Positions 292 through 27,594 of a DNA stretch of 64,000 nucleotides are shown here, piece by piece. Origin of the DNA: an uncultured bacterium (GTDB lineage Bacteria > Hydrogenedentota > CAZGCA01 > CBFDCQ01). The stretch spans positions 106,350 to 170,349 of the forward strand of contig CBFDCQ010000001.1 of the NCBI GenBank assembly GCA_965603355.1, written 5' to 3'. The notes below the pieces were generated by a model. That model did no database searches, was not told the origin of the DNA, and saw only the letters and a list, made by a program, of their open reading frames with translations. The position numbers and the translations under genes were made by a program. The stretch's first letter is position 1. Each line of letters starts with the position of its first letter.

Positions 292-306
292 TCGCCTCTT
301 CTATTC

Positions 307-1137
307 TCACCAGCGGAGATGGTTATCCTCTCCGACCAGTTCCTTGAACCGGCCCGTGACGATGAGCTCCTTGTTCTTCTTTCTTTCCGCGACCCTTTGC
401 CGCAACCTCTCGAGTTCACTTTCTATGGAGCTCATCTTCTCCGTGTATCCGTTGAGCTTCAAATCGAACAGTTCATTGAGGTTCGCCTTCAGCTTTGAAT
501 GCGCCTCCGTTCGTTTAGCTTCATCGTCGGCAGTTCTATACTGCCGTGCAAGGTCGCGGCTTTGGCTTTCGAGCTCAACCGCCCGTTGACGGTCCTTCTC
601 CGCGTAAGCGTACCGCTCCGGTGCGAAAGAATCCAACACATATGAGCCACGGCGGCCCACAACGGTCCTTCCATCGACCATCATGGCAGGTAGTTTGACC
701 ATCGAACGCTCAAGCAACTCGCGAGCGTTGTCCCGACTCTTCCGCATTTGCATATACGCCTGGGCAAGATTCTCGCCAGCATGTTCATGGACGACCTCTA
801 TCCTCCCGGTACGTTCGTTCATAAGTGCGCGGGCCTTCTCGAGAAGCTTGGCCAGTTCTTCGTCCATTGCTTCCGAGGTGATAACCAGACGGTTAAGCTC
901 TTTCCTCAAGTCAACGTCCGCCCCCTTCAAAAGCTTCAGTTCGGTTTCGAGATCGTCCAGGAGATCTTCGCCGTCAATAGTGATCTTCACCCTGCTGGTT
1001 TGTTTCACTTCGGGCACCTTCTCCTCCACAGCGGCGTAATAACGAGTTACCCCCATCTTGTCCTCGACGCCAATTGTCAGCCCTGAAACGGTGACCAGCA
1101 CTGTGGCGGCTTTCATCAATGCAGCAACACTAATCAT
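307..1137 (-). CDS. secreted coiled-coil hypothetical protein, last gene of the ECF sigma/anti-sigma operon
   Basis: 276-aa ORF with a hydrophobic N-terminal signal-like segment (MKAATVLVTVSGLTIGV) and long charged Glu/Lys/Arg-rich helices. It lies 22 nt downstream of the anti-sigma gene on the same strand. Confidence 0.55.
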   Translation of the reverse strand: MISVAALMKAATVLVTVSGLTIGVEDKMGVTRYYAAVEEKVPEVKQTSRVKITIDGEDLLDDLETELKLLKGADVDLRKELNRLVITSEAMDEELAKLLEKARALMNERTGRIEVVHEHAGENLAQAYMQMRKSRDNARELLERSMVKLPAMMVDGRTVVGRRGSYVLDSFAPERYAYAEKDRQRAVELESQSRDLARQYRTADDEAKRTEAHSKLKANLNELFDLKLNGYTEKMSSIESELERLRQRVAERKKNKELIVTGRFKELVGEDNHLRW

Positions 1138-1159
1138 GATTCGGTTCCTCCTCTCCTGG

Positions 1160-1810
1160 TTACTCCTGCTCTAAATCCAGCGCTAACTTGAAAACAGCGT
1201 TCTCCAGCCCATGCACGCGCCTATCAAAGACGGGCATCATCTCGCGTGCCATCTGCTGGTCCATATAGAAAGTGTTGGCCTCGAGGCTGGCCAGCCGTGC
1301 CTCGAGATCTGATGGTGCGCGCATCGGCCCGACGAGTCCGTCGCGTCCCTCGGAGAACACGACGGCATGTAAGGGGAGTCTCTCGTCAGTTTGCGGCGGA
1401 ACCGGAGGTTCCGCAACATACACCGGCGGCTCGTATGGAGGCGGTGATGAAGGTCGTCCTACAACATACACCTTGAACGCTACCGCAGCGAGCAGGACGA
1501 TACAGGAAACCACCGCTGCTATGCCGACGCGCGCACCATACCATCTGTTTCCCCACAGCGCACCTGCAGCTCGTCGACCGGAGTCCGTGACACCGACCTC
1601 GGCGGCCCGACGGATGGATTCTATCGTTCGAGCGGTCGGCGCGGGAACGTCGCGGTCTCCTGCGCGTTCAATCACGGCTCGAAACGCCTCGAACGTTTCC
1701 CGGCACGTCACGCATCGGTCGAGATGACGTTCAAGCTGTCGACGCGCTTCATCCGCCAGCTCGTCGTGCAGGTACAGTACGATCAGCTTATTGTATCTAC
1801 GACATCTCAA
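1160..1810 (-). CDS. zinc-finger (HxxxCxxC) transmembrane anti-sigma factor
   Basis: N-terminal 'HLDRCVTCRE' matches the zinc-binding anti-sigma domain motif. There is a single TM helix (IAAVVSCIVLLAAVAF) followed by a Pro-rich periplasmic part. Its start codon overlaps the stop of the upstream ECF sigma gene by 4 nt. Confidence 0.7.
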   Translation of the reverse strand: MRCRRYNKLIVLYLHDELADEARRQLERHLDRCVTCRETFEAFRAVIERAGDRDVPAPTARTIESIRRAAEVGVTDSGRRAAGALWGNRWYGARVGIAAVVSCIVLLAAVAFKVYVVGRPSSPPPYEPPVYVAEPPVPPQTDERLPLHAVVFSEGRDGLVGPMRAPSDLEARLASLEANTFYMDQQMAREMMPVFDRRVHGLENAVFKLALDLEQE

Positions 1811-3400: not shown

Positions 3401-6400
3401 TTACCCTCCAACCGGCACGATCAACTCCACGGTGTTGTTCAATCCGTTTATCTCTTGAACTGCGTTGTCCGGATCGACGATCACCTTGAGGTGACACGTT
3501 CGGGCACGTTTCGGTGCCCAGATTATCGCGACATCTGCGATCTTCGGTTCCAGATCGTTCGGCGCGTCGAGCTTCTCTATGACCGCTTCGCCCAGACGTT
3601 GACCTCCCTCTTCAAGCACGACGCTCACGTTTTCGGCACCGGCAGAGCCAATGTTATGGACCGCGACGCGTACAGTAACGTTGTGCCCGGCGCGAGGCTC
3701 AAACGGCCGAACCTCCACATCGCCGTCGGTCACCGCCAGATCAGGCAGATTCTGAGGTGGAGGTTTACCTTTCTCGATCTGGGCAACCTGTATGAGGGTC
3801 ATCTCGCGACCTGTCAGTTCCACCTGAACGGGAGTGCCCCGTTCCTTGACCTCGACGACCTGTTCAGGGACCTCCTGATCGTGTTGGCCGTCACCGTCCC
3901 GGTCCGGTCCGACGCGCAACTGGTACTTGCCGGGCTCCAACCTCCACAGTTTCAGGTACACCTTTCTGCCAACCGGTTCAAAGTTGTACGCAAGCACTTT
4001 GAGCGACCGGCGCGTCGCGTTCGTGACCAGCGCGGCAAAGTCCCGTCTGGTTCCCGACCAGGTTACCGCATAGTATGGGTACTCCGCGCCCGAGCCGCAT
4101 CCGCCCGTGTACATCGACAGGAGATCGTCCACCCCGCGAACGTTCACGGAGTCCGTGAACTTAACCTCGCTCGTCAGCAGCGGGAAATTGTATTTCGTGC
4201 TGTTTATGGAATCCCGACAGGCCTGCACCAAGTGCGTCTTATCGCCCGTCAGGAGGAATCTCGTGTACGGGGCACCTCGCGCCGCCAGGTAATCATCAAA
4301 CGGTGTGACTCGCTTCAGCAAGCGGAGCTTGCACCCGAATCGGGCAAACCCGCTTTCGTCAAGCATCTTTGCCGCCCAGCCCGCAGTGCCTTCCGCCGCG
4401 TCCCCGGCCGGGTTTTGCCAGTGCCCCTGCGCGATTTCCAGCCCGGAGTCGATCGGATACAACAACTGCAGGTCGCCCGTCAAGTCGTACGTCGCGAGTA
4501 GCTGATCGTATAGTGGTGCTGCCGCGCCGGAGCCCCAGTTGTAATCGTCCGAGCGAAGACCGGCGCGGTGCCAACTGTCCGAGTACCCGCCGATCTCGTC
4601 TCGCGCGAAAGAGACCGCCGCCGGAACGACACCCTGTGGTTTACCTTTTTCGGTGCGCAGCGCGTCCTCCACCCATGCCTTCCCCCAGTCCTCAAACAGT
4701 CTAACCAGGGCCGGATTGTGGTTGTACCAACACAACCATCGTCCCGGCTCGGCGGCACGGGCGTTCATGGGGACATCGACCGCGCGCGGCCGTCCTTCAT
4801 CAACGTTCTTTGAAGAGAACCACGCGGACTTGAAATGTAGATGCCCGCGCTCGTTTACGCCTGTCCAGACGTCGCGCATGTGTCTCATCGTTTCCATACA
4901 GCGTTCGATGTAGAGCGGGTTGCCGTAGTCCACCGCGACCATAAGGGGCAGTGTGTTGCTCGTGAACCTTGCGCCGTGCTTAACGTCCCGTACGGTCGCG
5001 CAATAACCCTCCTCTACAGCGTCCGAAGCCCAGATCTGTTCCGCCAGCCTGCGTATGGCTCCGCGAGCGCCGTCGTCGTCCGCAACGAGCACGGCGATCA
5101 GCCACCAACGCAGCAACTCGCTGTCCTTCTCAAGCCCGCTGCCGAACTCGCCGTCTTGAGTCTGTGCATCACCAACCCAGTAGTCGATCACTTCCATGAC
5201 CCTGCGAAGCGCTTCCCTTTGAGCGGCCGCCCACGGCGGCGCGCCTCCCGCCTCCACGGAATAGGCCGTGGGATGCGCGATCTGCTTGCCTCGATACATC
5301 GCGAGCAAGTCAAAATCGGGATAATCGTCAGCGAGCATCCTCAAAACCTGGTCCGCCTCCCGACGCTGGTACCCACTATGCTGGTCACGCCACATCCAGT
5401 ACCATATTCTTCCGAGATACCATACGGCCTGATCGTACAGCGGATCCCGAGGATCAGCGGCTATCTGCGCCATGAGGTCCGCCGCTATCGTGAACCTCTG
5501 CCGAACCGATAAACCGGTCTGCTGCTCGGCATAACTCCATGCGCCGAGATCGTAGTAGTAGACGCCAAGCAGGTACTTCTGCACCAGATCGAACCGGTTG
5601 GCCAGTTGCGTTTCATACGATGCGGCATATTGCGTGAGCGACCGTGCAGCATCCCGTACGAGCGATTTGGCGTTGTTTGCGTCCAACCTTCCGCCAATCG
5701 CGAGCTTGCAGTACGCCCGAAGCGTTTCATCAGGTATGTATCCGAACTGTTTCATGGCCAACTCATACTGGCCGACGTCGAACAGCTTCTTGCCCCGCTC
5801 GTAAACCGGAAAACCAAGCGGCGCGTCCGAAACCAGCTTCCCTTCTTCCACCCTGAAAGGTTCGTACGCAGGTACCTTGAAAACGATGCCGTTAACTTCG
5901 ACACCTTCATCGCAGGTCACGCGGATCGTCGTGGAATTCGCCTTGACCTCCAGGGGAAATCGCAGTGTCCTGCGCGGCCGCCCGGGCAGAGCATCGACGA
6001 ATCTGCCGGATTTGGCCATGAGAACACCCTCGGCGTAGACGCGCACATCCATGCCTGCCCGGCGGCTTTCTCCCACGGTGACCTCCACGAAGTACGTGCC
6101 AGACGGAACGTCGGCGCGGAAGTCAACCTGGCGCGACCCAACAACCCCATCGCGACTCAACTCGTCGGCGGTGAGGTCGTTTCGGACCTCCACCTCTCTG
6201 TCCGGTGCCTGTGTCCAGCCGTACCGTTTCGTCGGATCGTAGAGGCTCTCCTTGGTTACCTTCGTGTATCCCTGCTTAAGAGTGCTGTTGACGTCGCCCA
6301 TGTCGTAACCGTAGTTGGTGGCTGCGTCAGCGCGTGAGATGTGAATGCATAATGCCGCTGCAAGAACAGAGGTTGTTGCACAAGCAACTGTGAGACTTGA

Positions 6401-6415
6401 CTGGAATAACCGCAT
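3401..6415 (-). CDS. large secreted multidomain protein: N-terminal beta-sandwich, (alpha/alpha)-toroid-like putative polysaccharide-active domain, C-terminal CARDB domain
   Basis: Probable start is MRLFQSS... at 6415, with GGAGGA 9 nt upstream, rather than the ORF-track start at 6463. A signal peptide is followed by a Trp/Tyr-rich helical core, and the C-terminus (HNVTVRVAVHNIGSAGAENVSVVLEE...TVELIVPV) looks like a CARDB domain. The catalytic assignment is inferential. Confidence 0.55.
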   Translation of the reverse strand: MRLFQSSLTVACATTSVLAAALCIHISRADAATNYGYDMGDVNSTLKQGYTKVTKESLYDPTKRYGWTQAPDREVEVRNDLTADELSRDGVVGSRQVDFRADVPSGTYFVEVTVGESRRAGMDVRVYAEGVLMAKSGRFVDALPGRPRRTLRFPLEVKANSTTIRVTCDEGVEVNGIVFKVPAYEPFRVEEGKLVSDAPLGFPVYERGKKLFDVGQYELAMKQFGYIPDETLRAYCKLAIGGRLDANNAKSLVRDAARSLTQYAASYETQLANRFDLVQKYLLGVYYYDLGAWSYAEQQTGLSVRQRFTIAADLMAQIAADPRDPLYDQAVWYLGRIWYWMWRDQHSGYQRREADQVLRMLADDYPDFDLLAMYRGKQIAHPTAYSVEAGGAPPWAAAQREALRRVMEVIDYWVGDAQTQDGEFGSGLEKDSELLRWWLIAVLVADDDGARGAIRRLAEQIWASDAVEEGYCATVRDVKHGARFTSNTLPLMVAVDYGNPLYIERCMETMRHMRDVWTGVNERGHLHFKSAWFSSKNVDEGRPRAVDVPMNARAAEPGRWLCWYNHNPALVRLFEDWGKAWVEDALRTEKGKPQGVVPAAVSFARDEIGGYSDSWHRAGLRSDDYNWGSGAAAPLYDQLLATYDLTGDLQLLYPIDSGLEIAQGHWQNPAGDAAEGTAGWAAKMLDESGFARFGCKLRLLKRVTPFDDYLAARGAPYTRFLLTGDKTHLVQACRDSINSTKYNFPLLTSEVKFTDSVNVRGVDDLLSMYTGGCGSGAEYPYYAVTWSGTRRDFAALVTNATRRSLKVLAYNFEPVGRKVYLKLWRLEPGKYQLRVGPDRDGDGQHDQEVPEQVVEVKERGTPVQVELTGREMTLIQVAQIEKGKPPPQNLPDLAVTDGDVEVRPFEPRAGHNVTVRVAVHNIGSAGAENVSVVLEEGGQRLGEAVIEKLDAPNDLEPKIADVAIIWAPKRARTCHLKVIVDPDNAVQEINGLNNTVELIVPVGG

Positions 6416-6600
6416 CTTTGGCCATCCTCCTCGAATTACGCCACCAATCGTGCTCTGGCCCACTCAGATCTTACCAGAATACCCGGCACATTGGCAACAG
6501 ATCGCGCCTAACGTACCGAAATCGCTATATTTGGGATGCAATTCAAACGGTTTTGTGCTAACGTACCGGAGAAAAGCGGCTCAACGGAGGTACTCGACTA

Positions 6601-9341: not shown

Positions 9342-10457
9342 TCAAATGCTACGCTTGTTTGCACGGTTGGATCTGGTATCGTCCCCTTGTTGCCCCTCGC
9401 GCTTGGCCTGCGCAGCAGGCTTCTGCAGCTGTCTTCGCTCCCGTCTATATTTGACGAGCCACCAAATCGCGGCTGTGGTAAGCATCCCTAACAAGCTTCG
9501 CTCAACCGCATTTGCCAGCAGGCGCGACGTCGAAGATTCGCGTCCTGAACCTAGGATCGTCAGATAAATGTAAACGGCAAGTGTGCAGACGAAGAACCCA
9601 GCCGCAAATATTGCGTTCCTCCATTCCTGAGCCCGGCGCAAGTTGTCTCTCACGCGTGCTACCTTCCGCGGACCAGACTCCGGCTCAGGCCGATCAGGAG
9701 TGAACCAAGCTGCGCTCGTCGCCCGATATCGGACGTAGGCAATGAGCCTGTCATAACCTCGCGTCGCAGATGGTATCTCGAGAGTAGTGCCATCCTTCGA
9801 GACCAACTCAGTCACCTCAGACGATTGAGCCCCATACTGGTCATATCTCCAGCTCTGACTCACACGCTGTAGCGCAGTCAAGACTACCTCGCGCTGTTTT
9901 CGACCGCGTTTGTGAATCAGTTTGTCGCCGCGTACGATGAAGGCGCCCCACGGCAGCGCTCGGAGTCCGAGTGGGAAACGTGCTTCACCCACGGCTTCCA
10001 CCTCTTTCGCCAGGGCTTCTTCAAGCTGGGTGAGTTTCTGCGTCAGCATTCCGTGCACAGGCGACTCCGCACGCAGGAGATAGGAGTATACTTTCAACCG
10101 TTTTCCCCAGGCGTCGCGCAGAATGATGACCTTCAACCCGCCTAGAAACCGTCGCACATCGTACTCCGCGATCTGATCCCACCGCATGGACCGGCTGCCC
10201 GACAAAGTGATGTAGCGAATCTCGTCATCGTTCCATAGATATACCCCATGTGCTCTCGCCAGAACGTAAATGCAAAGGCAGAGTACTGCCAGCGCCAGCA
10301 TCACACCTGGCAGGTGCTCGCTGATTTCTCCAGTTCGAATCTGCGTTAAAAAGAAACGTAATAAGGACAAATAGAGTACCAGGACACCGAAAGCATAGAT
10401 CCTGAAATTGAGCATCGGTTTCGCCACTCTTATCCGCTTTTCCGCGTTGCTACTCAT
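9342..10457 (-). CDS. hypothetical integral membrane protein
   Basis: 371 aa with N-terminal and C-terminal TM helices, a central soluble region and a basic C-terminal tail. No family recognised. Confidence 0.5.
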   Translation of the reverse strand: MSSNAEKRIRVAKPMLNFRIYAFGVLVLYLSLLRFFLTQIRTGEISEHLPGVMLALAVLCLCIYVLARAHGVYLWNDDEIRYITLSGSRSMRWDQIAEYDVRRFLGGLKVIILRDAWGKRLKVYSYLLRAESPVHGMLTQKLTQLEEALAKEVEAVGEARFPLGLRALPWGAFIVRGDKLIHKRGRKQREVVLTALQRVSQSWRYDQYGAQSSEVTELVSKDGTTLEIPSATRGYDRLIAYVRYRATSAAWFTPDRPEPESGPRKVARVRDNLRRAQEWRNAIFAAGFFVCTLAVYIYLTILGSGRESSTSRLLANAVERSLLGMLTTAAIWWLVKYRRERRQLQKPAAQAKREGQQGDDTRSNRANKRSI

Positions 10458-10955: not shown

Positions 10956-13772
10956 TCAGCCCGGCTTTAGCGGGCTCCTCTTTGCAGCCCGCCGGGCACA
11001 TAATGCCAGAGTCGCCACAACGATAGCGGTAATCGTTCCCGCAAGGACAGGGTAACGGACGGCCAGTCCTACAAAAGCGACTGCCGGTTTCAGAACGAAG
11101 CGCACCGCTGCCCTGAGAGGCGCTCGGATCGACATGAACCGCGCAAGCGGCGGGCTATGCCTGTAGTACGCTCTGACGAGCGCACATCCTGCCCGATTCG
11201 TCAGCAGATACTTGTCCCTGAACTCGCGTAAGGCAGCTACCTCGTCAACCGAGGGCGTGCCGTACGCCGCGGTTGCTATGAAACAGGGCCCGCTGCTGCT
11301 GCCTCCACCGAGGCGCCGAGGAAGTGACGGTATGGAACCCGGGTTGAGCGGGTTCGTTCCCTGTGCGACCTCCGTTCCGTCTGAGTAACCGTCGTTGTCA
11401 GTATCACGGTCAAGCGGATCGGTACCGCAGACATTGACTTCCTGGCCGTCGGTAAGCCCGTCTCCGTCGGTATCCGGGTTGTCTCGGTCCGTCCCGATCA
11501 CCGCCTCCTCATTGTTGGTCAGACCATCATGGTCAGCATCGGGAGACTGGGTAGATAACAGGAGCGCCAGCAACCCGCCCTCTCTGCCGGCTGCAAGATC
11601 GGGGTATCCGTCCTCATCGAAATCCCCCGCAACGAAACTACGCAGGTTCGCTCCCACCTCGTAGGGGAAGGCCGCCTGAAACGTGCCGTCACCATTGCCA
11701 AACAGGATCGAGACACCCCCCCCACCATAATAGTACCAAGAAAACCAGTTTGTCACGGCCAAATCGCTATGACCGTCCTGGTCGAAATCCGCTATGATTA
11801 TGCCCTCAGGAGAAGTGCCCGCCGTGTAGCCGACCGCTTCCCCGAACGTGCCATCGCCGTTGCCGAGCAGCACAAGAACTTCGTTTCCGTAGTCGTTGGC
11901 AACCGCGAGGTCGGCATGCCCGTTGAGGTCGAAATCCCCGCTCGCGATGCCTTTGGGTCCTCCCCCTGCGGCATATGAAAGTGCCGGCTGGAACGTGCCG
12001 TCACCATCGGCCAGGAATATGGACACTTCGTCGCTCTCCGTGTTGGTCAACGCCAGGTCGGTGCGGCCGTCGCCATCAAAGTCGGCAACCGCCATGCCCA
12101 CGGGTCCCTCTCCCACGGCATATGAAACGGCGGACTGGAACGTTCCATCACCATTGCCGAGCAGCACAGAAACGATGCCTGCCTCCCAATGCTTCACCAG
12201 CAAATCCGCGTAACCGTTGCCATCGAAGTCGCCAGCCGTTATGCTTCCGGGTCCTTCTCCCACAGCATATGAGACTGCCGATTGAAAGGTCCCGTCACCG
12301 CTGCCCAGCAATATCGACACGTCGTCGCTGTCCCGGTTGGCTACAGCGAGGTCGGTGTGGCCGTCCCGGTCAAGGTCAGCGGTCGTCAAGCATAGGGGAT
12401 AATCACCAGCGGTGTAGTCTATGGCGGTCTGAAACGTACCGTCTCCGTGACCAAGCAGCACGGATACGCTGTCGTCGCCACCGTTGGCCGCGGCGAGATC
12501 AGTGTGGCCGTCCTCATCGAAATCGCCGACGGTGGCATCGGACAGGCGACGTTCTACACTCTGACTCAACGCCGCCTGGAAGGTGCTGTCACCGTTCCCG
12601 AACACTACTGAAACGCTCCCGTCCCAACCGTCCGAATCGTAGCTGCCCCACTCCGCCATGATGAGGTCCGGCTGGCCGTCGCGGTCAACGTCCTCCATCG
12701 CAAGGTGATACGGGTGCGTGCCGGACGCATAGCTCAAAGCTGTCCGGAATGTACCGTCACCGTTGCCTAGCAGTACCGTGACGGCGTCCCTGGACATGCT
12801 GCTCACCGCCAGGTCCACGTGCCCGTCGCCGTCACAGTCCCCGATCGTGATACGCGTTGGACGGAACCCCGTATCGTAATCCATCGCTGTCCCGAACGTG
12901 CCGGTGCCGTCGCCAAGCAGCACAGACACTGCGCCGCTTATCCCCCTGGTCACCGCGAGGTCAGTGTATCCGTCCTGGTTGAAATCCCATGACGCCAGGC
13001 TGCCAACGTACTCTCCGACGGGGTACTCGACCGCTTCCTGGAACGTCCCGTCACCGTTGCCGGACAGGACCCAAATGTCGCCAGCCTGAGTTTCCCAGTC
13101 TCCTTCGGCTACAACCATGTCGGTATGGCCGTTCCCGTCAAAGTCACCCGTGGCAATATCTTCAAAGTGCATGTGCGCGAGCCCTTCAAGCACTTCATAC
13201 TCCACCGCTTCCTGGAACGTACCATCACCGTTACCGAGACAAACCAAAACGCCCCAGTAGGCCGAGCTTGTCGCGAGGTCAATATGGCCGTCCTCGTCAA
13301 AGTCTCCTGTCAGAATGATGCCCGGGGAGAAGGCAGCATAATTGACCGCTGTCTGAAACGTACCGTCACCGTTGCCGAGCAGCACGGAAACGTCATTGCT
13401 CGTTATGTTCGTCACAGCCAGGTCCGTATGGCCGTCTTCATCGAAGTCCCCCGTCGCTATATGGTCCGGCACCGACCCGGCATCGCAGTTCCACGCTGTA
13501 AAGAACGTGCCGTCGCCCCGACCGAGCAAAACGGGAACGATGTTCCACTCTTGGTTAGTCACGATCACGTCGATAAGGCCGTCCTCATCGAAATCTCCCG
13601 TGGCCATACGGTGCGGCGAGAAGCCAAGCCAGTTGCCCACCCGACTGGGAAACAAGGGGTGTTGTGCGGCGGCTGTGGCTTGGAGGCCGACCACCACCGC
13701 GAGTGTGACGAATATCAAAACCGGGCTATGCAGTTTTCCACCAACTCCCCCTTCATCGTGCGCGTTTCTCAT
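10956..13772 (-). CDS. secreted FG-GAP/VCBS repeat protein: two 7-bladed beta-propellers, thrombospondin type-3-like Ca-binding repeats, C-terminal 'GPCFIATAAYG' box, TM helix and basic tail
   Basis: Fourteen repeats of '(T/A)GDFD(E/G)DGHTDLAV' with interleaved 'LLGNGDGTFQ'. TSP3-like 'DTDGDGLTDGQE / DTDNDGYSDGTE' repeats follow. The C-terminus has ...SSSGPCFIATAAYG... then a hydrophobic helix (VLAGTITAIVVATLALCA) and RRAAKRSPLKPG. The start is taken at MRNAHDE... (13772) ahead of a signal-like segment; the ORF-track start is 13838. Confidence 0.85.
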   Translation of the reverse strand: MRNAHDEGGVGGKLHSPVLIFVTLAVVVGLQATAAAQHPLFPSRVGNWLGFSPHRMATGDFDEDGLIDVIVTNQEWNIVPVLLGRGDGTFFTAWNCDAGSVPDHIATGDFDEDGHTDLAVTNITSNDVSVLLGNGDGTFQTAVNYAAFSPGIILTGDFDEDGHIDLATSSAYWGVLVCLGNGDGTFQEAVEYEVLEGLAHMHFEDIATGDFDGNGHTDMVVAEGDWETQAGDIWVLSGNGDGTFQEAVEYPVGEYVGSLASWDFNQDGYTDLAVTRGISGAVSVLLGDGTGTFGTAMDYDTGFRPTRITIGDCDGDGHVDLAVSSMSRDAVTVLLGNGDGTFRTALSYASGTHPYHLAMEDVDRDGQPDLIMAEWGSYDSDGWDGSVSVVFGNGDSTFQAALSQSVERRLSDATVGDFDEDGHTDLAAANGGDDSVSVLLGHGDGTFQTAIDYTAGDYPLCLTTADLDRDGHTDLAVANRDSDDVSILLGSGDGTFQSAVSYAVGEGPGSITAGDFDGNGYADLLVKHWEAGIVSVLLGNGDGTFQSAVSYAVGEGPVGMAVADFDGDGRTDLALTNTESDEVSIFLADGDGTFQPALSYAAGGGPKGIASGDFDLNGHADLAVANDYGNEVLVLLGNGDGTFGEAVGYTAGTSPEGIIIADFDQDGHSDLAVTNWFSWYYYGGGGVSILFGNGDGTFQAAFPYEVGANLRSFVAGDFDEDGYPDLAAGREGGLLALLLSTQSPDADHDGLTNNEEAVIGTDRDNPDTDGDGLTDGQEVNVCGTDPLDRDTDNDGYSDGTEVAQGTNPLNPGSIPSLPRRLGGGSSSGPCFIATAAYGTPSVDEVAALREFRDKYLLTNRAGCALVRAYYRHSPPLARFMSIRAPLRAAVRFVLKPAVAFVGLAVRYPVLAGTITAIVVATLALCARRAAKRSPLKPG

Positions 13773-13957
13773 TGTTCTTCCCTCCGTTATTGATATAACG
13801 ACCTTGCCCCTCTTGCCGAGCCGTACAGGCTCCCTCACACTCCTAATGACGTGAAAGCGGAATTACGATCAAACAGAATGCGTTTCTTCTTGGCCCTGCC
13901 GTGCCGGAAGCCCCCAGCCGCCGCAGCCTTACAAAGAGAACCACGGTCGCGTGCGCT

Positions 13958-16900
13958 CTAGTAGGACACCCCCAGGACCGGAGCTGTCGTCCATCCCCAC
14001 TTGATCAGTATCTTATCCGGCGGCAGGAGTGACGTGTTGCCTAGACCGTACCATGGGCCGAAATAGTCCGTATCGCCCACGCACCCATACTTCAGCTTGA
14101 AGTTCTTCACGTAACCGACTTCGCCGCAGATGTGCAGTTGCGTCTCCGGTCTGCCTTTAAGGATCATCATGTTTATCGACGCATCCGGCGCATCGATGTA
14201 GATATCGCAGTAATCCTCCCAATCCAGGTAGGCCTCCTCCCCGCAGGCCACAATCAGGTCACCGCCACTGTCAGTAACCTGAATCGTCAGCGTGTTCGTA
14301 TCCAAGTCGCGGTAGGCAACACAGCCGGGTTCGGTGTAAGTTACCTTTATGTCTCCGATATACTCCCTGTACGCCGCTCTCGTGCTGGCTGGCGACTCGC
14401 CTGCAACGGCACGCTCCCCGATATCGTCGTCGTCAAACGGTACGTCGAACGGCTTCGGTTTGAGCCCGACCGGCAGTTCGAGTTCTCCGAACCGCTCTTC
14501 GCCCTGCGCAGGGACGGAACGAATGTCCGGGTACTCCACTCCGAGCACAGGCGCGGTGGCAGCGCCCCGCTTTATCAGGATCTTCTTCGCCGGATCCTCA
14601 GCCGTGCTGCCCAGGCCGAAGTCCTCGCCGTAAGAGAGCGTGTTGCCTACGTACCCGTGCTTTAGTATGAAGTTCTTAACGTAACGGACCTGCCCGCAGA
14701 CATAGAGCTGTGTCTCCGGTCGCCCCTTGAGGTTGATCTTTTTGAGCGACGCATCGGGCGCGTCAATCACGATATCGCACCGATCGTTCCAGAAGAGAGC
14801 GGCCTCCTCCCTGGCGACCACGGTCAGGACTCCCGGCTCGTCGCCCCATACCGAGATGAGGAGCGTATCGGCCAAGTCGTCATAGCACGCGAAACAGGTC
14901 GGCTGGCTATAAACCACTTTAACGTCATTCACGAAGGCCTTGTATGCGCGACCCTCTGCCGGCAGCGCCTGGTTGACGTGAACTACGGTCGTCGCGCTGT
15001 CGGATCCCGTCGGACCAGATACAGTGAGCGTGACCGTGTAGTCGCCCGTGAAGTAGTAAGTATGCGCCGGGTTCTGCGTCGTGCTCTCGTACCCGTCACC
15101 GAAATCCCACGACCAACTCGTGATCATGCCCGTCGATTCGTCCGTGAAGTCTATGGCCAGCGGTCTGGTGCCGCCAGATACGCCGGCGCTTAACGCTGCA
15201 ACAGGCGATAGCAGCTCCACGTCACTGTACTCGTCGGCGCCGATATCGTACTCCGTGCCGGTGCCGTCCGCGCCAACACCCGGCACATCAACAGGACGCG
15301 GCTCGCCGTCCATATCGGTAGACGGCGCGCCATCGCCGGTGCCTGCATCAATGCACGGAGACGTGGCGCCGAGGTGGTAGTTGCCTGCTCCGGGGTCAAC
15401 GAATTGCGGGTCGCCGTCCAGATTGTCCTCGGCTTCAGCCAAGACTGCATTGAGCCCGTTCGGGCCCGTTGCATCGGTGATGGTCACAAGACCTTCATTG
15501 AAATACACCCCGTCCGGATTGTTGTAGAACAGGCAGTTCTTCACGATGGGATCCGACTCGTCGTCGTTCTCGTAAATCGCGTGGTTGTTGTTGTTCGCGA
15601 AAATGGTGTTGACGACCATCCCTTCACTGTCATGGAAAAGCACGCCTCCTGCGCGGTCGTCAGCGGAATTATCTACAAGCGTGCAGTTTGCGACTCTGAC
15701 GTCCGTTTGGAACTCAAAATTCAGTGCGCCGCCGTGGTATGAAGCATGATTCCCTACAATCAGACAGTTGGCGATGACCGTGGAGAAACCTTCGTGACAT
15801 TCGATCGCTCCCCCTTTACGACTCCGATTGTTCAAGAAGGTGCACCGGTCGACCTCAAGAAACGATTCATAAGAACTGATTCCGCTCCCCAAGGCGTCCG
15901 TCACGTTGTCCTCGAACAAGCTGTCACTTACGGACGCACTCCCTCCCCACACCTGGAACCCTCCTCCTTCGAACCCGAAGTTATCCCGGAACTGGCACTG
16001 GACAATAACTGCAGAGGATTGAACCACGGCTATGGCGCAGCCATATCGGCCTTGGTTTCCCGTGAACAGGCAATTCTCGATGGTGATACCCCAGGCGCCG
16101 CTGACGCACTTGATTCCACCGCCGCCCCAAGCTTGACTACTGTCCGCGTTGCCGCCGGTGATCGTGAAGCCGTCGATACCGACGTTATACAGGCCGTCGC
16201 AGACAATCACGTGAGGCGTAGCACCCTGCCCGTCCAACGTGGTCACATGCACATCCGGGTCGCGGTCCCGGAACAACGCGTCGCCCGTGGCCGGAAATCC
16301 TCCGTATAGCGCCATAGCGCTCTCCAGCATGACTGGGGAACCGATGTTGTACGTATCCGCCGCCACCCATACGTCCTTCCCCTGAGCTGAAGCCGACGCT
16401 ACTGCATTGTGGAGGCTGTGCAGCGCCGTGGCCCAGGAGTTCCCGGTCGTGTTGTCACCGTTCGGCGACACAAACACCGGGTCACGCAACTGCTGTACCG
16501 GATCGGTTCCGTTGTCGACCTCCTCTCTGTCGGTCCATCCGTCACCGTCCGTATCCACCTGCTGCGGGTCCGTGCCATGAACGTACTCCTCGCCGTTCGT
16601 GAGTAAGTCGCCGTCCGCATCCGCGTCGGCATCGTCCTCAAGCGGCAGGAGGTCGTTTGCCTGTTCCCACCAGTCCGGCATGCCGTCCTCGTCGGAATCG
16701 ACGAGTTCATCGAAGCCGATATCATAGCCTAGATGCACCGGCCGTTCCTCGCCGTCGAAATCGCCCGCCGGCGCATTTTCGCTCGTGCCCGCGTCAATGC
16801 ACGGCGAGGAGGCCTGCAAGTGGTAGCCACCCGCGTCAGAGTTCACGAATAGGGGATCGCCCTCGATGTTGCCTTCCGCTTCCGCCATAACCGCATTCAA

Positions 16901-18028
16901 ACCGCCAGGCCCTTCCGCGTTAAAGATGGTGTCCGACCCGTTATAGAAATAGACGCCGTCGGGATTACCGAAGAACAGGCAGTTCTTCACGGAAATGTCC
17001 TGTCCGGAGTCATTCTCAAAGATAGCGTGGCCATTGTTATTCACCAGGACCGTGTTGGCTATTGTAGCGTCGCAACTGTGGGCGAACACACCGCCTCCCT
17101 TGGGGGCGGAGTTGTCGACAATGGTGCAGTTCATGATTGTGATATTCGCTTCAAATCCCAGGCTTATACCGCCGCCATGATCGGTCGATGTATTCCCAAC
17201 AACCAGACAGTTGGTGATGTTGATCTCATTGCTCTGGTGAATATCCACCCCGCCGGAGCCGTATGAACCTCTGTTGTCAGTGAAAGTACAGTGATTAACG
17301 GTTATGGAGCAGTCGTACCCGCTGATACCTCCGCCGTCGCGCGCTGAGTTGCCATGGAACAGACAGTCAGTGACCGTAGCTTGGGCTCGGTGCAGTTTAA
17401 GCCCTCCACCTTCGCTGGCGCTGTTGTACCGAAACTCACATCCCGTGACAGTCGCGCTGGCGTTATCGACATTCACTCCGCCGCCAAAGCCACTTATCCT
17501 ATTGCCCTCAAGAACGCAGTCCACTATCGTGACATCCGAACTCCCGCCGACACAAGCAATCGCACCGCTGCCGGCATACCCAGGACCTCCCCCTATGCAG
17601 TCTGTAAGCGCGAGTCCGTCGATCCTCACACCGCTCACATTATCGCAGACAATCAGGTTGTCGGCGGCGCCCTGGCCGTCCAACCTCGTAGCATACTCGG
17701 AAGGATCCCGGTCATCGAATCCCGGGTTACCCGCCGACGGGAACCCGCCGTACACAGTGACACCACTCTGCATCGTTATTGCAGAACCGATACTGTAGTC
17801 ACCCGCCGCTATCCAGACATCCTCGCCCCCGGACGCGGCCTGCGTTACCGCGTCATGGATGCTGAGAAGGGCAGTGGCCCACGAATCACCCGTCGTGTTG
17901 TCCCCGGTCTGGGCCACGTACACCTGGGCATAGCACTCTCCCGCTAAGACGAGGCACAACGAAAGACAGAGGACATATAAAAGAGGCCGAAGGAAGCCTG
18001 AATGCCGTTGGTGTTTCATGATTTCCAT
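13958..18028 (-). CDS. giant secreted Pmp-like right-handed beta-helix protein: two duplicated beta-helix modules, TSP3 repeats, PKD domain, two tandem novel Cys-containing C-terminal domains
   Basis: Signal peptide (LLYVLCLSLCLVLAGECYA). There are many GGA[ILV]/GGGI and FxxN motifs (CTFTDNRGS, CLVVGNTST...), as in chlamydial polymorphic membrane protein repeats / PbH1. TSP3-like DTDGDGWTDREE repeats and a PKD-like segment (WDFGDGYESTTQNPAHTY) follow, then two ~138-aa homologous C-terminal domains. Confidence 0.85.
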   Translation of the reverse strand: MEIMKHQRHSGFLRPLLYVLCLSLCLVLAGECYAQVYVAQTGDNTTGDSWATALLSIHDAVTQAASGGEDVWIAAGDYSIGSAITMQSGVTVYGGFPSAGNPGFDDRDPSEYATRLDGQGAADNLIVCDNVSGVRIDGLALTDCIGGGPGYAGSGAIACVGGSSDVTIVDCVLEGNRISGFGGGVNVDNASATVTGCEFRYNSASEGGGLKLHRAQATVTDCLFHGNSARDGGGISGYDCSITVNHCTFTDNRGSYGSGGVDIHQSNEINITNCLVVGNTSTDHGGGISLGFEANITIMNCTIVDNSAPKGGGVFAHSCDATIANTVLVNNNGHAIFENDSGQDISVKNCLFFGNPDGVYFYNGSDTIFNAEGPGGLNAVMAEAEGNIEGDPLFVNSDAGGYHLQASSPCIDAGTSENAPAGDFDGEERPVHLGYDIGFDELVDSDEDGMPDWWEQANDLLPLEDDADADADGDLLTNGEEYVHGTDPQQVDTDGDGWTDREEVDNGTDPVQQLRDPVFVSPNGDNTTGNSWATALHSLHNAVASASAQGKDVWVAADTYNIGSPVMLESAMALYGGFPATGDALFRDRDPDVHVTTLDGQGATPHVIVCDGLYNVGIDGFTITGGNADSSQAWGGGGIKCVSGAWGITIENCLFTGNQGRYGCAIAVVQSSAVIVQCQFRDNFGFEGGGFQVWGGSASVSDSLFEDNVTDALGSGISSYESFLEVDRCTFLNNRSRKGGAIECHEGFSTVIANCLIVGNHASYHGGALNFEFQTDVRVANCTLVDNSADDRAGGVLFHDSEGMVVNTIFANNNNHAIYENDDESDPIVKNCLFYNNPDGVYFNEGLVTITDATGPNGLNAVLAEAEDNLDGDPQFVDPGAGNYHLGATSPCIDAGTGDGAPSTDMDGEPRPVDVPGVGADGTGTEYDIGADEYSDVELLSPVAALSAGVSGGTRPLAIDFTDESTGMITSWSWDFGDGYESTTQNPAHTYYFTGDYTVTLTVSGPTGSDSATTVVHVNQALPAEGRAYKAFVNDVKVVYSQPTCFACYDDLADTLLISVWGDEPGVLTVVAREEAALFWNDRCDIVIDAPDASLKKINLKGRPETQLYVCGQVRYVKNFILKHGYVGNTLSYGEDFGLGSTAEDPAKKILIKRGAATAPVLGVEYPDIRSVPAQGEERFGELELPVGLKPKPFDVPFDDDDIGERAVAGESPASTRAAYREYIGDIKVTYTEPGCVAYRDLDTNTLTIQVTDSGGDLIVACGEEAYLDWEDYCDIYIDAPDASINMMILKGRPETQLHICGEVGYVKNFKLKYGCVGDTDYFGPWYGLGNTSLLPPDKILIKWGWTTAPVLGVSY

Positions 18029-23133: not shown

Positions 23134-23979
23134 ATGTGGGATTACACTGACAAAGTCAAAGAGCATTTCAGCCACCCTCGAAACGTAGGGCTTATCGAGG
23201 AACCCGACGGTGTCGGTGAGGTCGGTTCATTGGCGTGCGGCGACGCCCTTAAGCTCACCTTCAAACTGGACGACGACGGCCGCATCGCCGACGTGAAGTT
23301 CCAGACGTTCGGGTGCGCGAGCGCCATCGCATCCTCCTCCGCCCTGACCGAGATCATCAAGGGTATGACCCTGGATGAGGCGGAAAAAGTTACCAACAAG
23401 GACATCGCCGAATACCTTGGAGGGCTGCCGGAACAGAAGATGCACTGCTCCGTAATGGGTCGCGAGGCGCTGGAAGCGGCCATCAGGAACTATCGCACCG
23501 GACAAACGGGAACACGTGAACTTGAGGGCAAGGTTGTTTGCACGTGTTTCGGTGTCACCGACAGTGAGATAGAACGGATCGTACGTGATAACAACCTGTC
23601 ATCGGTCGAGGACGTCACCAACTACTGCAAGGCCGGAGGCGGCTGTGGCGGGTGCAGGGAGGAAATCGCGAAGATTATCTCAGCCGTTCGAGGGGAACCT
23701 ATCGAGGTGGAACAACCTCAACCGCAGCCCAAGCGCATCACCAATATTCAGCGGATAAATCTGATCGAGGAGACGATCGAACGTGAGATTCGTCCACGAC
23801 TGCGCCAGGACGGCGGCGACATAGAGCTGGTGGACGTTGAGGGGAACCGCGTCCTGGTATCGTTCCGGAAAGCCTGCGCCCAGTGTCCCGCCGCCCCTTT
23901 CACGATGAAGGAGATCGTGGAAGCGCCGCTGCGCCAGTTCGTCTCGCAGGACATAGTCGTTGAGGAGGTAAAACCATGA
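23134..23979 (+). CDS. nifU: NifU (full-length: IscU-like scaffold + BFD-like [2Fe-2S] + C-terminal NifU/Nfu domain)
   Basis: N-terminus has MWDYTDKVKEHFSHPRNVG...GDALKL...CASAIASSSALTE...HCSVMG (IscU cysteines). A central CxxC...CxxC region follows, then the C-terminal ...CAQCPAAPFT motif. Confidence 0.9.
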   Translation: MWDYTDKVKEHFSHPRNVGLIEEPDGVGEVGSLACGDALKLTFKLDDDGRIADVKFQTFGCASAIASSSALTEIIKGMTLDEAEKVTNKDIAEYLGGLPEQKMHCSVMGREALEAAIRNYRTGQTGTRELEGKVVCTCFGVTDSEIERIVRDNNLSSVEDVTNYCKAGGGCGGCREEIAKIISAVRGEPIEVEQPQPQPKRITNIQRINLIEETIEREIRPRLRQDGGDIELVDVEGNRVLVSFRKACAQCPAAPFTMKEIVEAPLRQFVSQDIVVEEVKP

Positions 23980-25133
23980 GGAACGTTTACCTCGACAATA
24001 ACGCAACGACAATGGTGGCTCCCGAGGTCAGAGACGCCATGGCGCCGTTTTTCGAGGAACTATGGGGGAACCCTTCCAGCATCCATACGTTCGGCGGGCA
24101 AGTGAAACAGTACGTCGATGAAGCCCGCGCAGGTGTCGCGGCGTTGATCGGCGCCGACCCGTCGGAGATAGTCTTCACGGGTTGCGGCTCGGAAAGCGAC
24201 AACATGGCGCTGCGAGGCGCCGTGGAAGCCGCCGGAGGTTACCCTCACATTATCACTACCCGCGTCGAACATCCGGCCGTCATGACGGTATGCCGTTATC
24301 TCGGAGACCGCGGCTCCAAGCTCACGGAGCTGCGGGTGGATTCCGAAGGGCGGCTCGACCTCGACGAACTTCAAGACTCCATCGGTTCAGACACTGATAT
24401 AATAAGTATCATGTGGGCCAACAACGAGACAGGCGTGATCTTCCCTGTAGAAGAGATCGCCGAAATCGTCAAACAGGCCGGGTGCGTCATGCACACCGAC
24501 GCCGTGCAGATGGTCGGCAAGATGCCCGTTGACGTTAAGGAAACCTCGGTCGATTTGCTCTCTCTCTCTGGCCACAAACTTCATGCGCCCAAAGGGGTAG
24601 GGGCGCTTTACGTGCGAAAAGGAACGAAAGTGAATCCGCTGATCCTCGGCGGACACCAGGAGGGCGGCAAACGTGCCGGCACAGAGAATGTGCCTTATAT
24701 TGTGGGTCTGGGACGCGCCTGCGAGCTTGCGGCCGAGAACATGGAAGAGGAAAGGGTTCGCGTCAAGGCGATGCGCGACCGGCTGGAGGAGGGTATCCTC
24801 GCCAGCTGCCCGGACGTGCACGTCAACGGCGACCGCGACAACCGTCTGCCTAACACCCTGAACGTCGGGTTTGAGTTTATTGAGGGCGAAGCTATTCTCC
24901 TGATGCTCGACGAGGTTGGAATAGCCGCCTCGTCAGGTTCCGCCTGCACCTCCGGGTCCCTGGAGCCGTCGCACGTCATGCGGGCAATGGGTGTACCGTT
25001 CACGGCGGCGCACGGCTCGATCCGTTTCAGCCTGAGCAGGTACAACACGGATGATGACGTATCTCACACGCTGGAACATCTTCCGAGGATAGTGAACCGT
25101 CTGCGGGAACTGTCTCCGTTCGTGAAAGATTGA
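23976..25133 (+). CDS. nifS: cysteine desulfurase (class I, NifS/IscS-like)
   Basis: MRNVYLDNNATT...; PLP-lysine motif LSLSGHKLHAPKGVGALY; catalytic cysteine loop SSGSACTSGS. It overlaps the nifU stop by 4 nt. Confidence 0.9.
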   Translation: MRNVYLDNNATTMVAPEVRDAMAPFFEELWGNPSSIHTFGGQVKQYVDEARAGVAALIGADPSEIVFTGCGSESDNMALRGAVEAAGGYPHIITTRVEHPAVMTVCRYLGDRGSKLTELRVDSEGRLDLDELQDSIGSDTDIISIMWANNETGVIFPVEEIAEIVKQAGCVMHTDAVQMVGKMPVDVKETSVDLLSLSGHKLHAPKGVGALYVRKGTKVNPLILGGHQEGGKRAGTENVPYIVGLGRACELAAENMEEERVRVKAMRDRLEEGILASCPDVHVNGDRDNRLPNTLNVGFEFIEGEAILLMLDEVGIAASSGSACTSGSLEPSHVMRAMGVPFTAAHGSIRFSLSRYNTDDDVSHTLEHLPRIVNRLRELSPFVKD

Positions 25134-25143: not shown

Positions 25144-27594
25144 CTAGTCATCGTGGGGCGGCGACACGTCTACTCCGCCGCAACAAACGTTTGCCGCATC
25201 TGGTGCTGTGCAGCACGCACGGGAGTAGTCCGGCGATACTCGGCGCAGTCGTTCGACGACTTCCGGCAGGGCCCCGAGCACGTAATCTACATCTTCCTGA
25301 GTATTGTCTCGTCCCAGAGAGAATCGGATACTCGCGTGTGCCGTTGTAGGCGTGACGCCCATCGCGCGAAGAACGTGAGAAGGTTCGACCGAGCCGGACG
25401 TACATGCTGAACCGGTGGACACCGCGATACCTTTCATGTCCAGACCAATAAGAAGCGCTTCCCCCTCGGCACACTCGAAACTCATGTTGAGCATGTTAGG
25501 CAGCCGGCTCGCGACCGAACCGTTTGTCCGCACGAGATCGATCCGCTCCTTTATACCGACCTCAAGCCGATCCCGAAGCGCCGCGAGACGAGCCGACTCA
25601 GCAGCCGCATCGCTGCACGCAAGCTCGATCGCTCTGGCGAAACCGACTATCCCCGGCACGTTCTCCGTACCTGCGCGACGGTTCCGTTCCTGATACCCCC
25701 CGTGCAGCAATGGCGCGATCCGTGTGCCTTTCCTGCTGTACAGCGCGCCTACTCCTTTCGGACCATAGAGCTTGTGCGCCGATATAGTCAGCAGAGCCAC
25801 GTTGAGCCGGTTCACATCGACCGGCATCTTTCCAACAGCTTGGACGGCGTCCGTATGGAAGGCAATTCCTCTTTGCCTGGCGATATCAGCAAGATCATCA
25901 ATAGGTTGAACCGTGCCGGTCTCACTGTTTGCGAGCGTAACGGAAACCAGGGTCGTGTCCGGCGTGAGAGCTTCTCGCAAGCTTTCCGGATCGACCAGCC
26001 CGTCACCGTCAACCGGCAGATAACTTGACGAGAACTCTCTGTCTTCCAGTTCACGAAAGCAATTGAGTACCGAGTGATGTTCGATCTGGGACGTCACGAT
26101 GTGCCTGGCCCTCTTCTCGTATGCGCGGGCCGCACCCTTGACCGCCATATTGTTGCCCTCGGTTCCCCCGCTGGTGAAGTATATCTCCGTGGGATCGGCG
26201 CCGATGCAGTCTGCAACCGTGTTCCGCGCGTCCTCGACGGCCTTTCGCGCCTCCTGCCCGCAAGTATGTATGCTGGAAGCGTTGCCGAACGTGCCGGTGA
26301 AATACGGCAGCATCGCCTCCAGCACTTCTTCCCGGACGGGCGTCGTGGCTGCATGGTCCATGTACACTTTTCGCATTGTTTCTCTCCTACGTGTACAACC
26401 TATCGGGGCCGTGTCGGATTCCCCGGAGACGTAGGGGCGAGGCATGCCGCGCCCCGACAAAGCATCCATGGCTTGCGCGAGATCGTCGATCAAGTCTTCA
26501 GCGTCCTCGAGTCCCACCGAGAGTCGAACCAGCCTGTCGTTTATGCCGAGGCGGTCGCACTCTTCACGCGGATAACTCAGATGCGTCATACGCGCCGGCA
26601 ACGTTACGATGCTCTCAACGGCGCCCAGGCTCACCGCGAGCGACCAGAGCTTCACCTTTTGCAACACCCGTTTGGCAACATCTTCGTCACGCGCCAGGAA
26701 CGATACCATCGCGCCGCCGCCGGAAGCCTGTCTCGCGTGGATATCGTTATCCGGATGCGTATCGAGACCCGGGTACAACACCTGCTCCACGTCGGCTCGG
26801 TCGAGCAGCCACTCCGCGATCTGTCGCGCGCTCTCTTGCTGCACGTTCATCCTGGCTTTCAGTGTCTTCATCCCCCTCATGAGAAGCCAGCAATCGAAAG
26901 GGGAGGGGACGGCACCTACTGCGTTTTGACGAAAATGTATCTTCTTCGCCAACTTATCATCATTGACCACCGCTAATCCGGCAATGAGATCGCTGTGTCC
27001 CCCGAGGTACTTCGTAGCGCTGTGAATCACAATGTCCGCGCCGGCCTCCAGAGGCCGCTGAAGATAGGGCGACATGAACGTATTGTCCACCATAAGAAGG
27101 ATGTCCTTCTCGCGCGATATCGCCGACAACTCCCCCAAGTCGGTGATCTTCATCATCGGATTCGACGGGGTCTCGATCAGGATCGCGCGCGTCCTGTCGC
27201 TCAGCGCCGTCTCGACCGCCGCAATGTCCCCGGTATCCACCAGGCTGAACTCTATGCCGAAGCGCGGGAACAATCTGGTCAGGATCCTGTACGTGCCTCC
27301 GTACAACCCCTCGGTGGCTATGACATGGTCGCCGCTCTCCAACAACATCAAGCATGTTGAGATAGCCGCCATACCAGAGGAGAACGCGAATCCGCACTCG
27401 CCGCCCTCCAACAAGGCGATGTACTTCTCAAGCACGTCGCGTGTCGGATTGCCGGTGCGCGAGTAGTCGTATCCACCTTGCTGATCGGGGCTCGTGCGCT
27501 TGAACGTCGAGACCTGATATATCGGTGTACTCAGCGCCCCCGTATGCGGACACGTGCTACCGGGATGGTGTATTAGTCTCGTACCTATTCTCAT
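25144..27594 (-). CDS. in-frame fusion ORF: N-terminal Cys/Met-metabolism PLP enzyme (cystathionine beta-lyase / gamma-synthase family) + C-terminal cysteine desulfurase (IscS/NifS-like)
   Basis: Residues 1-~385 match the MetC/MetB family (YSRTGNPTRDVLEKYIALLEGGE, SATKYLGGHSD, RLSVGLEDAEDLIDDL). Residues ~407-816 are a complete class-I desulfurase (MRKVYMDHAATT..., SAHKLYGPKGVGALY, STGSACTSGS). An internal AGGAGAG-N5-ATG sits at the junction (~26376-26392) and +1 / +2 frame stops occur in the linker, so a 1-nt indel would resolve it into two genes. Confidence 0.7.
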   Translation of the reverse strand: MRIGTRLIHHPGSTCPHTGALSTPIYQVSTFKRTSPDQQGGYDYSRTGNPTRDVLEKYIALLEGGECGFAFSSGMAAISTCLMLLESGDHVIATEGLYGGTYRILTRLFPRFGIEFSLVDTGDIAAVETALSDRTRAILIETPSNPMMKITDLGELSAISREKDILLMVDNTFMSPYLQRPLEAGADIVIHSATKYLGGHSDLIAGLAVVNDDKLAKKIHFRQNAVGAVPSPFDCWLLMRGMKTLKARMNVQQESARQIAEWLLDRADVEQVLYPGLDTHPDNDIHARQASGGGAMVSFLARDEDVAKRVLQKVKLWSLAVSLGAVESIVTLPARMTHLSYPREECDRLGINDRLVRLSVGLEDAEDLIDDLAQAMDALSGRGMPRPYVSGESDTAPIGCTRRRETMRKVYMDHAATTPVREEVLEAMLPYFTGTFGNASSIHTCGQEARKAVEDARNTVADCIGADPTEIYFTSGGTEGNNMAVKGAARAYEKRARHIVTSQIEHHSVLNCFRELEDREFSSSYLPVDGDGLVDPESLREALTPDTTLVSVTLANSETGTVQPIDDLADIARQRGIAFHTDAVQAVGKMPVDVNRLNVALLTISAHKLYGPKGVGALYSRKGTRIAPLLHGGYQERNRRAGTENVPGIVGFARAIELACSDAAAESARLAALRDRLEVGIKERIDLVRTNGSVASRLPNMLNMSFECAEGEALLIGLDMKGIAVSTGSACTSGSVEPSHVLRAMGVTPTTAHASIRFSLGRDNTQEDVDYVLGALPEVVERLRRVSPDYSRACCTAPDAANVCCGGVDVSPPHDD

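Follow-up and report, generated by a model that had tools for sequence, protein, structure and literature searches.

Here, we describe a module at the C-terminus of a large, putatively secreted protein encoded in a 64,000-nucleotide stretch of contig CBFDCQ010000001.1 (GenBank assembly GCA_965603355.1) from an uncultured bacterium; the whole stretch is called the window below. The gene lies on the reverse strand at 13958..18028, and its 1356-amino acid product ends in two homologous domains, A and B, joined by an acidic linker and preceded by a PKD domain. The two domains are products of a duplication, they belong to a family for which we found no described counterpart, their fold is modeled with high confidence, and the pair recurs as a unit on many unrelated proteins; in relatives of the N-terminal part, a dockerin is found in its place. 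We tentatively suggest that this unit (PKD, A, linker, B, stop; hereafter, the cassette) may be a cargo-independent, non-covalent docking module that holds secreted proteins on the surface or matrix of the cell that makes them.

The gene and its C-terminal tandem domains

From its N-terminus, the protein comprises a signal peptide, a first beta-helix, an acidic linker resembling thrombospondin type-3 (TSP3) repeats, a second beta-helix with a choice-of-anchor Q segment, the PKD domain, domain A, a second acidic linker, and domain B. The coordinates below are those of the window, and domain borders marked as envelopes are from our hidden Markov model (HMM) of the family.

13958..18028 (-), whole gene, 1356 amino acids plus stop (open reading frame (ORF) list, translation, Pfam and NCBIfam scans)
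17927..18028 (-), Sec-type signal peptide, residues 1-34 (...LVLAGECYA/QV), cleavage site placed by eye
16709..17926 (-), parallel beta-helix unit 1, about residues 35-440, cargo; matches to PF13229 Beta_helix, NosD, and Chlam_PMP
16487..16708 (-), Asp-rich linker of bacterial TSP3 repeats (TSP3_bac), about residues 441-514; PF18884, 36.9 bits at residues 492-510
15194..16486 (-), parallel beta-helix unit 2 with choice-of-anchor Q, about residues 515-945; NF041518, 63.3 bits
14975..15172 (-), PKD domain, residues 953-1018; PF18911 PKD_4, E=2.1e-15
14525..14950 (-), domain A, residues 1027-1168, A type (PTCFACY..., ends ...GVEYPD); HMM envelope
14378..14524 (-), acidic A-B linker, residues 1169-1217, 49 residues, with a semi-conserved LKPKPF motif
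13961..14377 (-), domain B, residues 1218-1356, B type, protein end ...GWTTAPVLGVSY-stop; HMM envelope

A first-pass annotation, made from the sequence alone, had pointed to a tandem pair of paralogous C-terminal domains of about 138 residues at 13961..14947, which corresponds to residues 1028-1356 exactly. The A and B segments are indeed paralogs, as is evident from both the HMM envelopes and BLASTP, in which 80 of 145 positions are identical (55%) with 2 gaps (E=8e-50). The duplication, said to be visible also at the nucleotide level, is detected by BLASTN with 69% identity over 264 nt (E=1e-27), well past chance, and the core motif quoted for the two copies is genuine. The conserved Cys pairs need a narrower wording: they hold for two columns in the tandem-type copies, where Cys at domain positions C19 and C57 (a predicted disulfide) is present in 21 of 22, and do not hold family-wide, given that C19 and C57 occur in only 6/38 and 11/38 of the small stand-alone homologs, respectively, and the other Cys are variable. 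What is nearly invariant in the domain family is D58 together with a GDTxxYG loop, which, speculatively, could bind a metal. The domains are acidic (pI about 4.3-5.2), and the linker between them carries a net charge of about -6 (computed on residues 1167-1218).

The N-terminal part, i.e., the cargo, is of a different kind. The signal peptide has its hydrophobic maximum (Kyte-Doolittle (KD) hydropathy 2.09) at residues 12-30. The Beta_helix match that follows has E=5.5e-34 in the Pfam scan, and the PMP-type repeats are recognized by PF02415 (Chlam_PMP repeat, 32.2 bits, cut-off 20.6) and TIGR01376 (18.0 bits, cut-off 15). The two beta-helix units are paralogous to each other, with 47% identity over 421 amino acids (E=1.5e-129), so that the cargo at 15194..17926 (-) is itself an internal duplication, both units finishing in a choice-of-anchor-Q-like segment. 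The choice_anch_Q model of NCBIfam (NF041518) scores far above its cut-off of 25 bits in two stretches, the best being residues 883-934; please note that this match concerns the cargo and not the tandem domains. The protein had been called Pmp-like, which is appropriate for the N-terminal part and not for the rest: like the chlamydial Pmp autotransporters, it has PMP-type parallel beta-helix repeats in the N-terminal passenger; unlike them, it gave no match to any autotransporter beta-barrel model of Pfam or NCBIfam, and its C-terminus consists of the PKD domain and the new tandem pair instead.

Novelty of the family and its predicted fold

Scans of both domain copies against Pfam-A and NCBIfam at E<=10 returned zero matches, and when each of 60 aligned family members was scanned against Pfam, merely scattered chance matches in single members were seen. 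A profile search against all Protein Data Bank (PDB) sequences gave noise only, nothing better than E=0.3. AlphaFold2, run on domain B with the 60-sequence alignment, produced a compact all-beta model of very high confidence, with a mean predicted local distance difference test score (pLDDT) of 97.5 and a predicted template modeling score (pTM) of 0.91, and all five models have pLDDT >=96.6. Foldseek comparisons of two models with the PDB, and of the better model with BFVD, gave no match at E<0.01; the best PDB match has E of about 1 and template modeling (TM) scores do not exceed 0.37. The insignificant neighbors are beta-solenoids (TPS domains, ice-binding proteins, and CARP).

The domain had been put forward as neither a known sorting nor a known binding domain, with a match to a described carbohydrate-binding module (CBM) or to a C-terminal domain (CTD) of the type IX secretion system (T9SS) named as the outcome that would speak against it. 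This assessment stands, since Pfam, NCBIfam, PDB sequences, and Foldseek against the PDB are all without a match. Specifically, no CBM or lectin was found at the level of either sequence family or solved fold; the T9SS CTD models (TIGR04183/PF18962 and the type-B CTD) match neither copy nor the whole protein at E<=10, nor any of the 60 members; the NCBIfam models of the short sorting tags (PEP-CTERM, LPXTG, CFI-box-CTERM, and GlyGly-CTERM) do not match a protein that ends in ...KWGWTTAPVLGVSY; PF00404 Dockerin_1 has no match in the 1356-residue protein; and Foldseek returned no outer membrane protein fold for the domain. We also considered the terminal ...LGVSY as an outer-membrane beta-signal, which is ruled out by the variable last residue of the family (Y, E, N, P, H, or Q) and by the acidic, soluble-like character of the domain. 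Literature searches found no description of the domain. As far as these tools can tell, it is a new family that belongs to no described one and has no detected fold relative.

Within residues 1001-1356 there is no hydrophobic helix, the maximum hydropathy over 19 residues being KD 0.97. Because of this and of the high-confidence model, we judge the domain to be a folded entity rather than a peptide tag. A new Pfam/NCBIfam model would be justified and could flag surface-displayed proteins in metagenomes.

Cargo proteins, small paralogs, and their genomic surroundings

Homologs were searched for in two ways: a word-indexed search of 5.8 billion proteins, which returned 7 fragments only, and an exhaustive HMMER profile search of 1.84 billion representatives, which returned 67 proteins. 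No relative was found when 185,579 species-representative genomes of the Genome Taxonomy Database (GTDB) were scanned with family patterns. In view of these numbers, the family is rare and essentially limited to metagenomes and metagenome-assembled genomes (MAGs). In a 4269-amino acid protein (P0062), domain positions ~30-65 were weakly matched about 20 times within the immunoglobulin (Ig)-like repeats (Big_13/Big_3_2); each match is insignificant, and we treated them as compositional.

The family members fall into two classes. The first comprises about 15 large proteins of 591-1409 amino acids, the window protein included (P0008 is identical to it). Their N-terminal parts are mutually unrelated: CotH kinase with a lamin-tail domain (LTD), beta-helix/PMP, subtilase S8, peptidase C25, matrixin M10, SBBP beta-propellers, CarboxypepD_reg repeats, and BNR. 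All complete ones begin with a signal peptide, and all but one (14/15) end in the same manner, i.e., TSP3 (in some of them), PKD, A, an acidic linker of 28-66 residues, B, and the stop codon, with 0 residues past B. In those complete members with a C-terminal cassette that were scanned, the PKD domain recurs as a conserved spacer ahead of A+B, whatever the cargo. The first-pass annotation had proposed a look for other cargo proteins ending in this domain; there are at least 12 unrelated cargo architectures with the PKD-A-linker-B end. We also considered a polymorphic-toxin reading and rejected it, since toxin systems keep the N-terminus and vary at the C-terminus, and the opposite is seen here. 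The metagenome scan recovered 12 loci, and the 11 that come from a single sample have 12 tail-bearing genes between them, in many cases as direct neighbors. Two metagenome contigs have a cassette gene that is broken across two frames just within domain A (L001, 138..1599, and L003, 107..1280), and these breaks are either assembly frameshifts or pseudogenes. In P0016, P0019, P0020, and P0021, the A-B linker has Asp/Glu runs alternating with Tyr, e.g., ...DYDYDYDYEYDGDEDED...; the linker of the window protein has a DDDD and is devoid of a DY run. Sulfotransfer_3 enzymes are encoded at small-paralog loci (see below), and sulfation of the linker Tyr residues, or Ca2+ binding, is conceivable.

Across cargos, the two halves of the pair form two types. 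Mean identity is 59% among A domains, 63% among B domains, and 49.5% between A and B (45-55% for A versus B within one protein), and the nearest neighbor of each A is another A and that of each B another B. The A and B types are orthologous across cargos; therefore, the pair, which is ancient, arose once and then moved as a unit onto new cargos, and A and B were both retained, each under its own constraint. There is one family member in which the pair is placed differently: in P0014 (746 amino acids, from a Joint Genome Institute (JGI) metagenome), A+B comes immediately behind the signal peptide and precedes a region of ~370 residues with no Pfam or NCBIfam match. The pair is, therefore, not obligatorily C-terminal.

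The second class consists of ~45 small secreted proteins of ~145-254 amino acids, each with a signal peptide, a single domain, and a tail of 30-80 residues whose end is often an amphipathic helix that is conserved; they come from PVC-type bacteria (see below), and part of them carry an annotation as Lentisphaeria or Omnitrophica MAG proteins. Small paralogs are also found as two adjacent genes, at 169..768 and 898..1527 in an Omnitrophica MAG (L107) and at 3..200 and 502..1068 in a Lentisphaeria MAG (L108), an arrangement that mirrors the A+B pair of the cassette. Six contexts of small paralogs are informative and independent, and in 4 of them glycosyltransferase (GT), sulfotransferase, or MBOAT genes adjoin. 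The conserved small paralog of the cassette lineage, P0082, lies ~5.6 kb from a cassette gene, and its long acidic tail closes with an amphipathic helix that is conserved (...KVAIFQSLLLNAE). The genes after it, in the same orientation, encode Glyco_trans_1_2, an ABC exporter, GT2, a GT2-Sulfotransfer_3 fusion, and GT4, and the ortholog of P0082 in a related species has the upstream gene in common. The other three contexts belong to other lineages: a second has a TMEM260-like GT-C/TPR protein and GT4, and a third PS_pyruv_trans and GT4; in the Omnitrophica MAG, two sulfotransferase-like genes and MBOAT come after the two adjacent small paralogs. The family PF13469 covers carbohydrate sulfotransferases, e.g., NodH (PMC11625862).

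With the second beta-helix unit of the window protein as the query, we further looked at what related proteins have at their C-terminal end. Among relatives without the cassette, the two closest (49% and 43% identity over 99% of the query) carry Dockerin_1 at the end, as do three further relatives, and FlgD_ig ends one. Thus, known docking or sorting modules take the slot that is held here by the cassette.

In the window itself, no second copy of the domain was found, small paralogs included. The scanned neighbors include a response regulator with GAF/HD, an amidase with LysM, NifU/NifS, a sodium:solute symporter, DUF6141, and an unassigned 371-amino acid ORF. They do not make up a sorting system, and no T9SS gene (PorK/L/M/N, Sov, PorU/V) was seen among the ORFs scanned in these 64 kb; the 371-amino acid gene (9342..10457) was compared with a 370-amino acid gene in L001 as a candidate for synteny, and no similarity was seen. 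The gene directly downstream, 10956..13838 (-), encodes 960 amino acids with 12 FG-GAP/VCBS repeats and TSP3, then a CFI-box-CTERM (86.9 bits), with a C-terminus of ...GPCFIATAAYGT plus hydrophobic helices. The product is a second large surface protein, encoded right beside the cassette gene and alike in build, whose C-terminal module differs. A 1020-amino acid protein (3401..6463, (-)), also large and probably secreted, has a galactose-binding-like domain at the N-terminus and, as a further kind of C-terminal beta-domain, CARDB. Elsewhere in the window, an 816-amino acid ORF (25144..27594, (-)) fuses a pyridoxal phosphate (PLP)-dependent enzyme of Cys/Met metabolism (PF01053, residues 5-376) to a class-V aminotransferase/NifS-like part (410-772) and adjoins a PALP cysteine-synthase-like gene, near the NifU/NifS genes at 23134..25133; and a 633-amino acid ORF (37476..39377, (+)) belongs to the flagellar assembly protein A family, with FapA_N and FapA beta-solenoid domains. 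The GroEL of the window is closest (73-76%) to sequences of Verrucomicrobiota, Lentisphaerota, and Omnitrophota, and our best guess from these comparisons is a deeply branching host of the Planctomycetes-Verrucomicrobia-Chlamydiae (PVC) type.

Proposed docking to the producer's surface and its alternatives

An uncultured, PVC-like lineage has fused one conserved cassette (PKD spacer, A, acidic linker, B, stop), always in one piece, to many Sec-exported proteins that are unrelated to each other. In our tentatively preferred reading, A+B would, once outside, bind to something in the envelope or matrix of the producing cell itself, and this binding would hold enzymes and adhesins on the surface. 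As to the ligand, it would most plausibly be a surface glycan made by the glycosyltransferase/sulfotransferase loci near the free-standing paralogs, or a free-standing paralog itself. Surface retention, the nature of the ligand, and the joint action of A and B are what we infer from the spread of the cassette, the dockerins in its place, and the gene neighborhoods. The occurrence of the domain outside the C-terminus, in P0014 and in the ~45 small proteins, fits a binding module. Several observations weigh against this docking. Glycan genes were not seen in 2 of the 6 small-paralog contexts, and glycosyltransferases are common genes; being acidic, the domains do not on electrostatic grounds suggest binding of a sulfated polyanion unless it is cation-bridged. 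Neither was a partner found: an all-versus-all BLAST of the ORFs of 15 loci plus the window gave no gene that recurs beside the tail-bearing genes, apart from the cargo genes and from contigs that are orthologous and syntenic, and the scanned ORFs of the window contain no dedicated partner gene. The first-pass annotation had proposed a look for a co-occurring secretion or sorting gene; no dedicated one lies next to the tail-bearing genes of these loci.

That annotation had offered a secretion-signal module, along with an anchor or a lectin. If the terminal cassette were read by a dedicated outer-membrane translocon in the manner of a T9SS CTD, and maybe removed later, one would understand why it is strictly terminal in 14/15 large proteins with a conserved ...LGVSY end, why it comes after a PKD/Ig domain, an arrangement known from many T9SS cargos, and why the cargo set (a C25 gingipain-family peptidase, a subtilase, and beta-helix adhesins) resembles that of T9SS. 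The cassette is also alike to the T9SS CTD (Por_Secre_tail, TIGR04183/PF18962) in being a folded, beta-rich C-terminal module on proteases and adhesins. However, the Por_Secre_tail/T9SS CTD models are without a match even at E<=10, Foldseek matched no solved CTD, and instead of a single Ig-like domain of 70-100 amino acids there are two copies of 139-142, i.e., a domain twice as long and, in this comparison, always paired. The last residue is not conserved; the pair is N-terminal in P0014; the small proteins have 30-80 residues after the domain; and no translocon-like gene recurs nearby in the 15 loci and the window. The lineage looks PVC-like, not like Bacteroidota, and T9SS is not known from PVC bacteria. 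A pure C-terminal signal is, therefore, disfavored, mainly by the domains found at other positions, and we regard this explanation as quite improbable.

The pair could instead face outward as a lectin or CBM and bind an external polymer, such as a marine polysaccharide, detritus, or the surface of prey, so that enzymes are concentrated on the substrate and not on the producer. Marine polymer degraders typically show this order of enzyme, PKD, and all-beta modules, CBMs often occur in tandem for avidity, and small homologs lie near glycan-related genes; these genes, however, are biosynthetic (GTs, sulfotransferases, MBOAT, and an ABC exporter) and point to a self-made glycan. Moreover, one common external substrate is hard to name because most cargos, with proteases from three clans, CotH kinase, and propellers among them, do not act on carbohydrates, and neither a Pfam CBM model nor a solved CBM fold matches. 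We consider an outward lectin unlikely. Another thought is that the domains polymerize or heterodimerize with each other and with the free-standing paralogs and build a proteinaceous surface layer or fiber. The adjacent gene pairs of small paralogs in the Omnitrophica and Lentisphaeria MAGs, which resemble A+B, and P0082, which combines its acidic tail and amphipathic helix with a location close to the cassette gene, are consistent with this, as are the beta-solenoids among the weak, non-significant Foldseek neighbors. All of these structural similarities are insignificant, though (E>=0.9, TM<=0.37), and the window has no small paralog; of all explanations, we give self-assembly the least credence.

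Docking on the producer's surface, to which we now return, has precedents of similar logic. Type I dockerins are likewise cargo-independent, located at the extreme C-terminus of signal-peptide proteins, internally duplicated, and attached to many unrelated enzymes per organism, and Dockerin_1 is at the same position in the closest relatives of the cargo. The cassette differs from them in that PF00404 does not recognize it, that its units are all-beta and 140 amino acids long as opposed to the two 22-residue Ca-binding helix-loop segments of dockerin, and that no cohesin-like partner was identified. SLH domains, which bind pyruvylated secondary cell-wall polymer, share the proposed logic, i.e., repeated non-covalent anchors on diverse exoproteins with a ligand from a glycan-modification locus, and one small paralog is near a PS_pyruv_trans gene. 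There is no sequence similarity between the two; SLH domains are helical, come in triplets, and belong to monoderm or atypical diderm envelopes, and the glycan link here is one of gene neighborhood only. The tags of the CFI-box-CTERM, PEP-CTERM, and LPXTG types take the same slot after TSP3 or a spacer, as CFI-box-CTERM does in the adjacent gene 10956..13838; such tags are a short motif plus a transmembrane helix, whereas the cassette is two folded domains of 140 amino acids without any hydrophobic helix. The proposed role would put a familiar concept, a C-terminal module for anchoring or docking that many proteins share, into practice in a new way. A more elaborate version, which we mention as a long shot, is a cohesin-dockerin-like surface display of new fold: A+B on at least 12 kinds of enzymes would dock onto the free-standing paralog, itself held in a self-made, possibly sulfated glycan layer via its acidic tail and amphipathic helix, and the acidic DY-rich linkers could be sites of further modification or Ca2+ binding.

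The reach of these findings is limited by the rarity of the family (67 in 1.84 billion representatives) and by its origin from uncultured organisms only. PVC-type sediment bacteria are major polymer degraders, and the surface retention of exoenzymes in diderms outside Bacteroidota and Proteobacteria is poorly known. The cassette is a testable candidate for a retention module, with a defined cargo set (proteases, CotH kinase, and adhesin-like beta-helices and propellers) and a free-standing paralog tied to glycan-synthesis loci, and protein display could gain a new docking pair from it.

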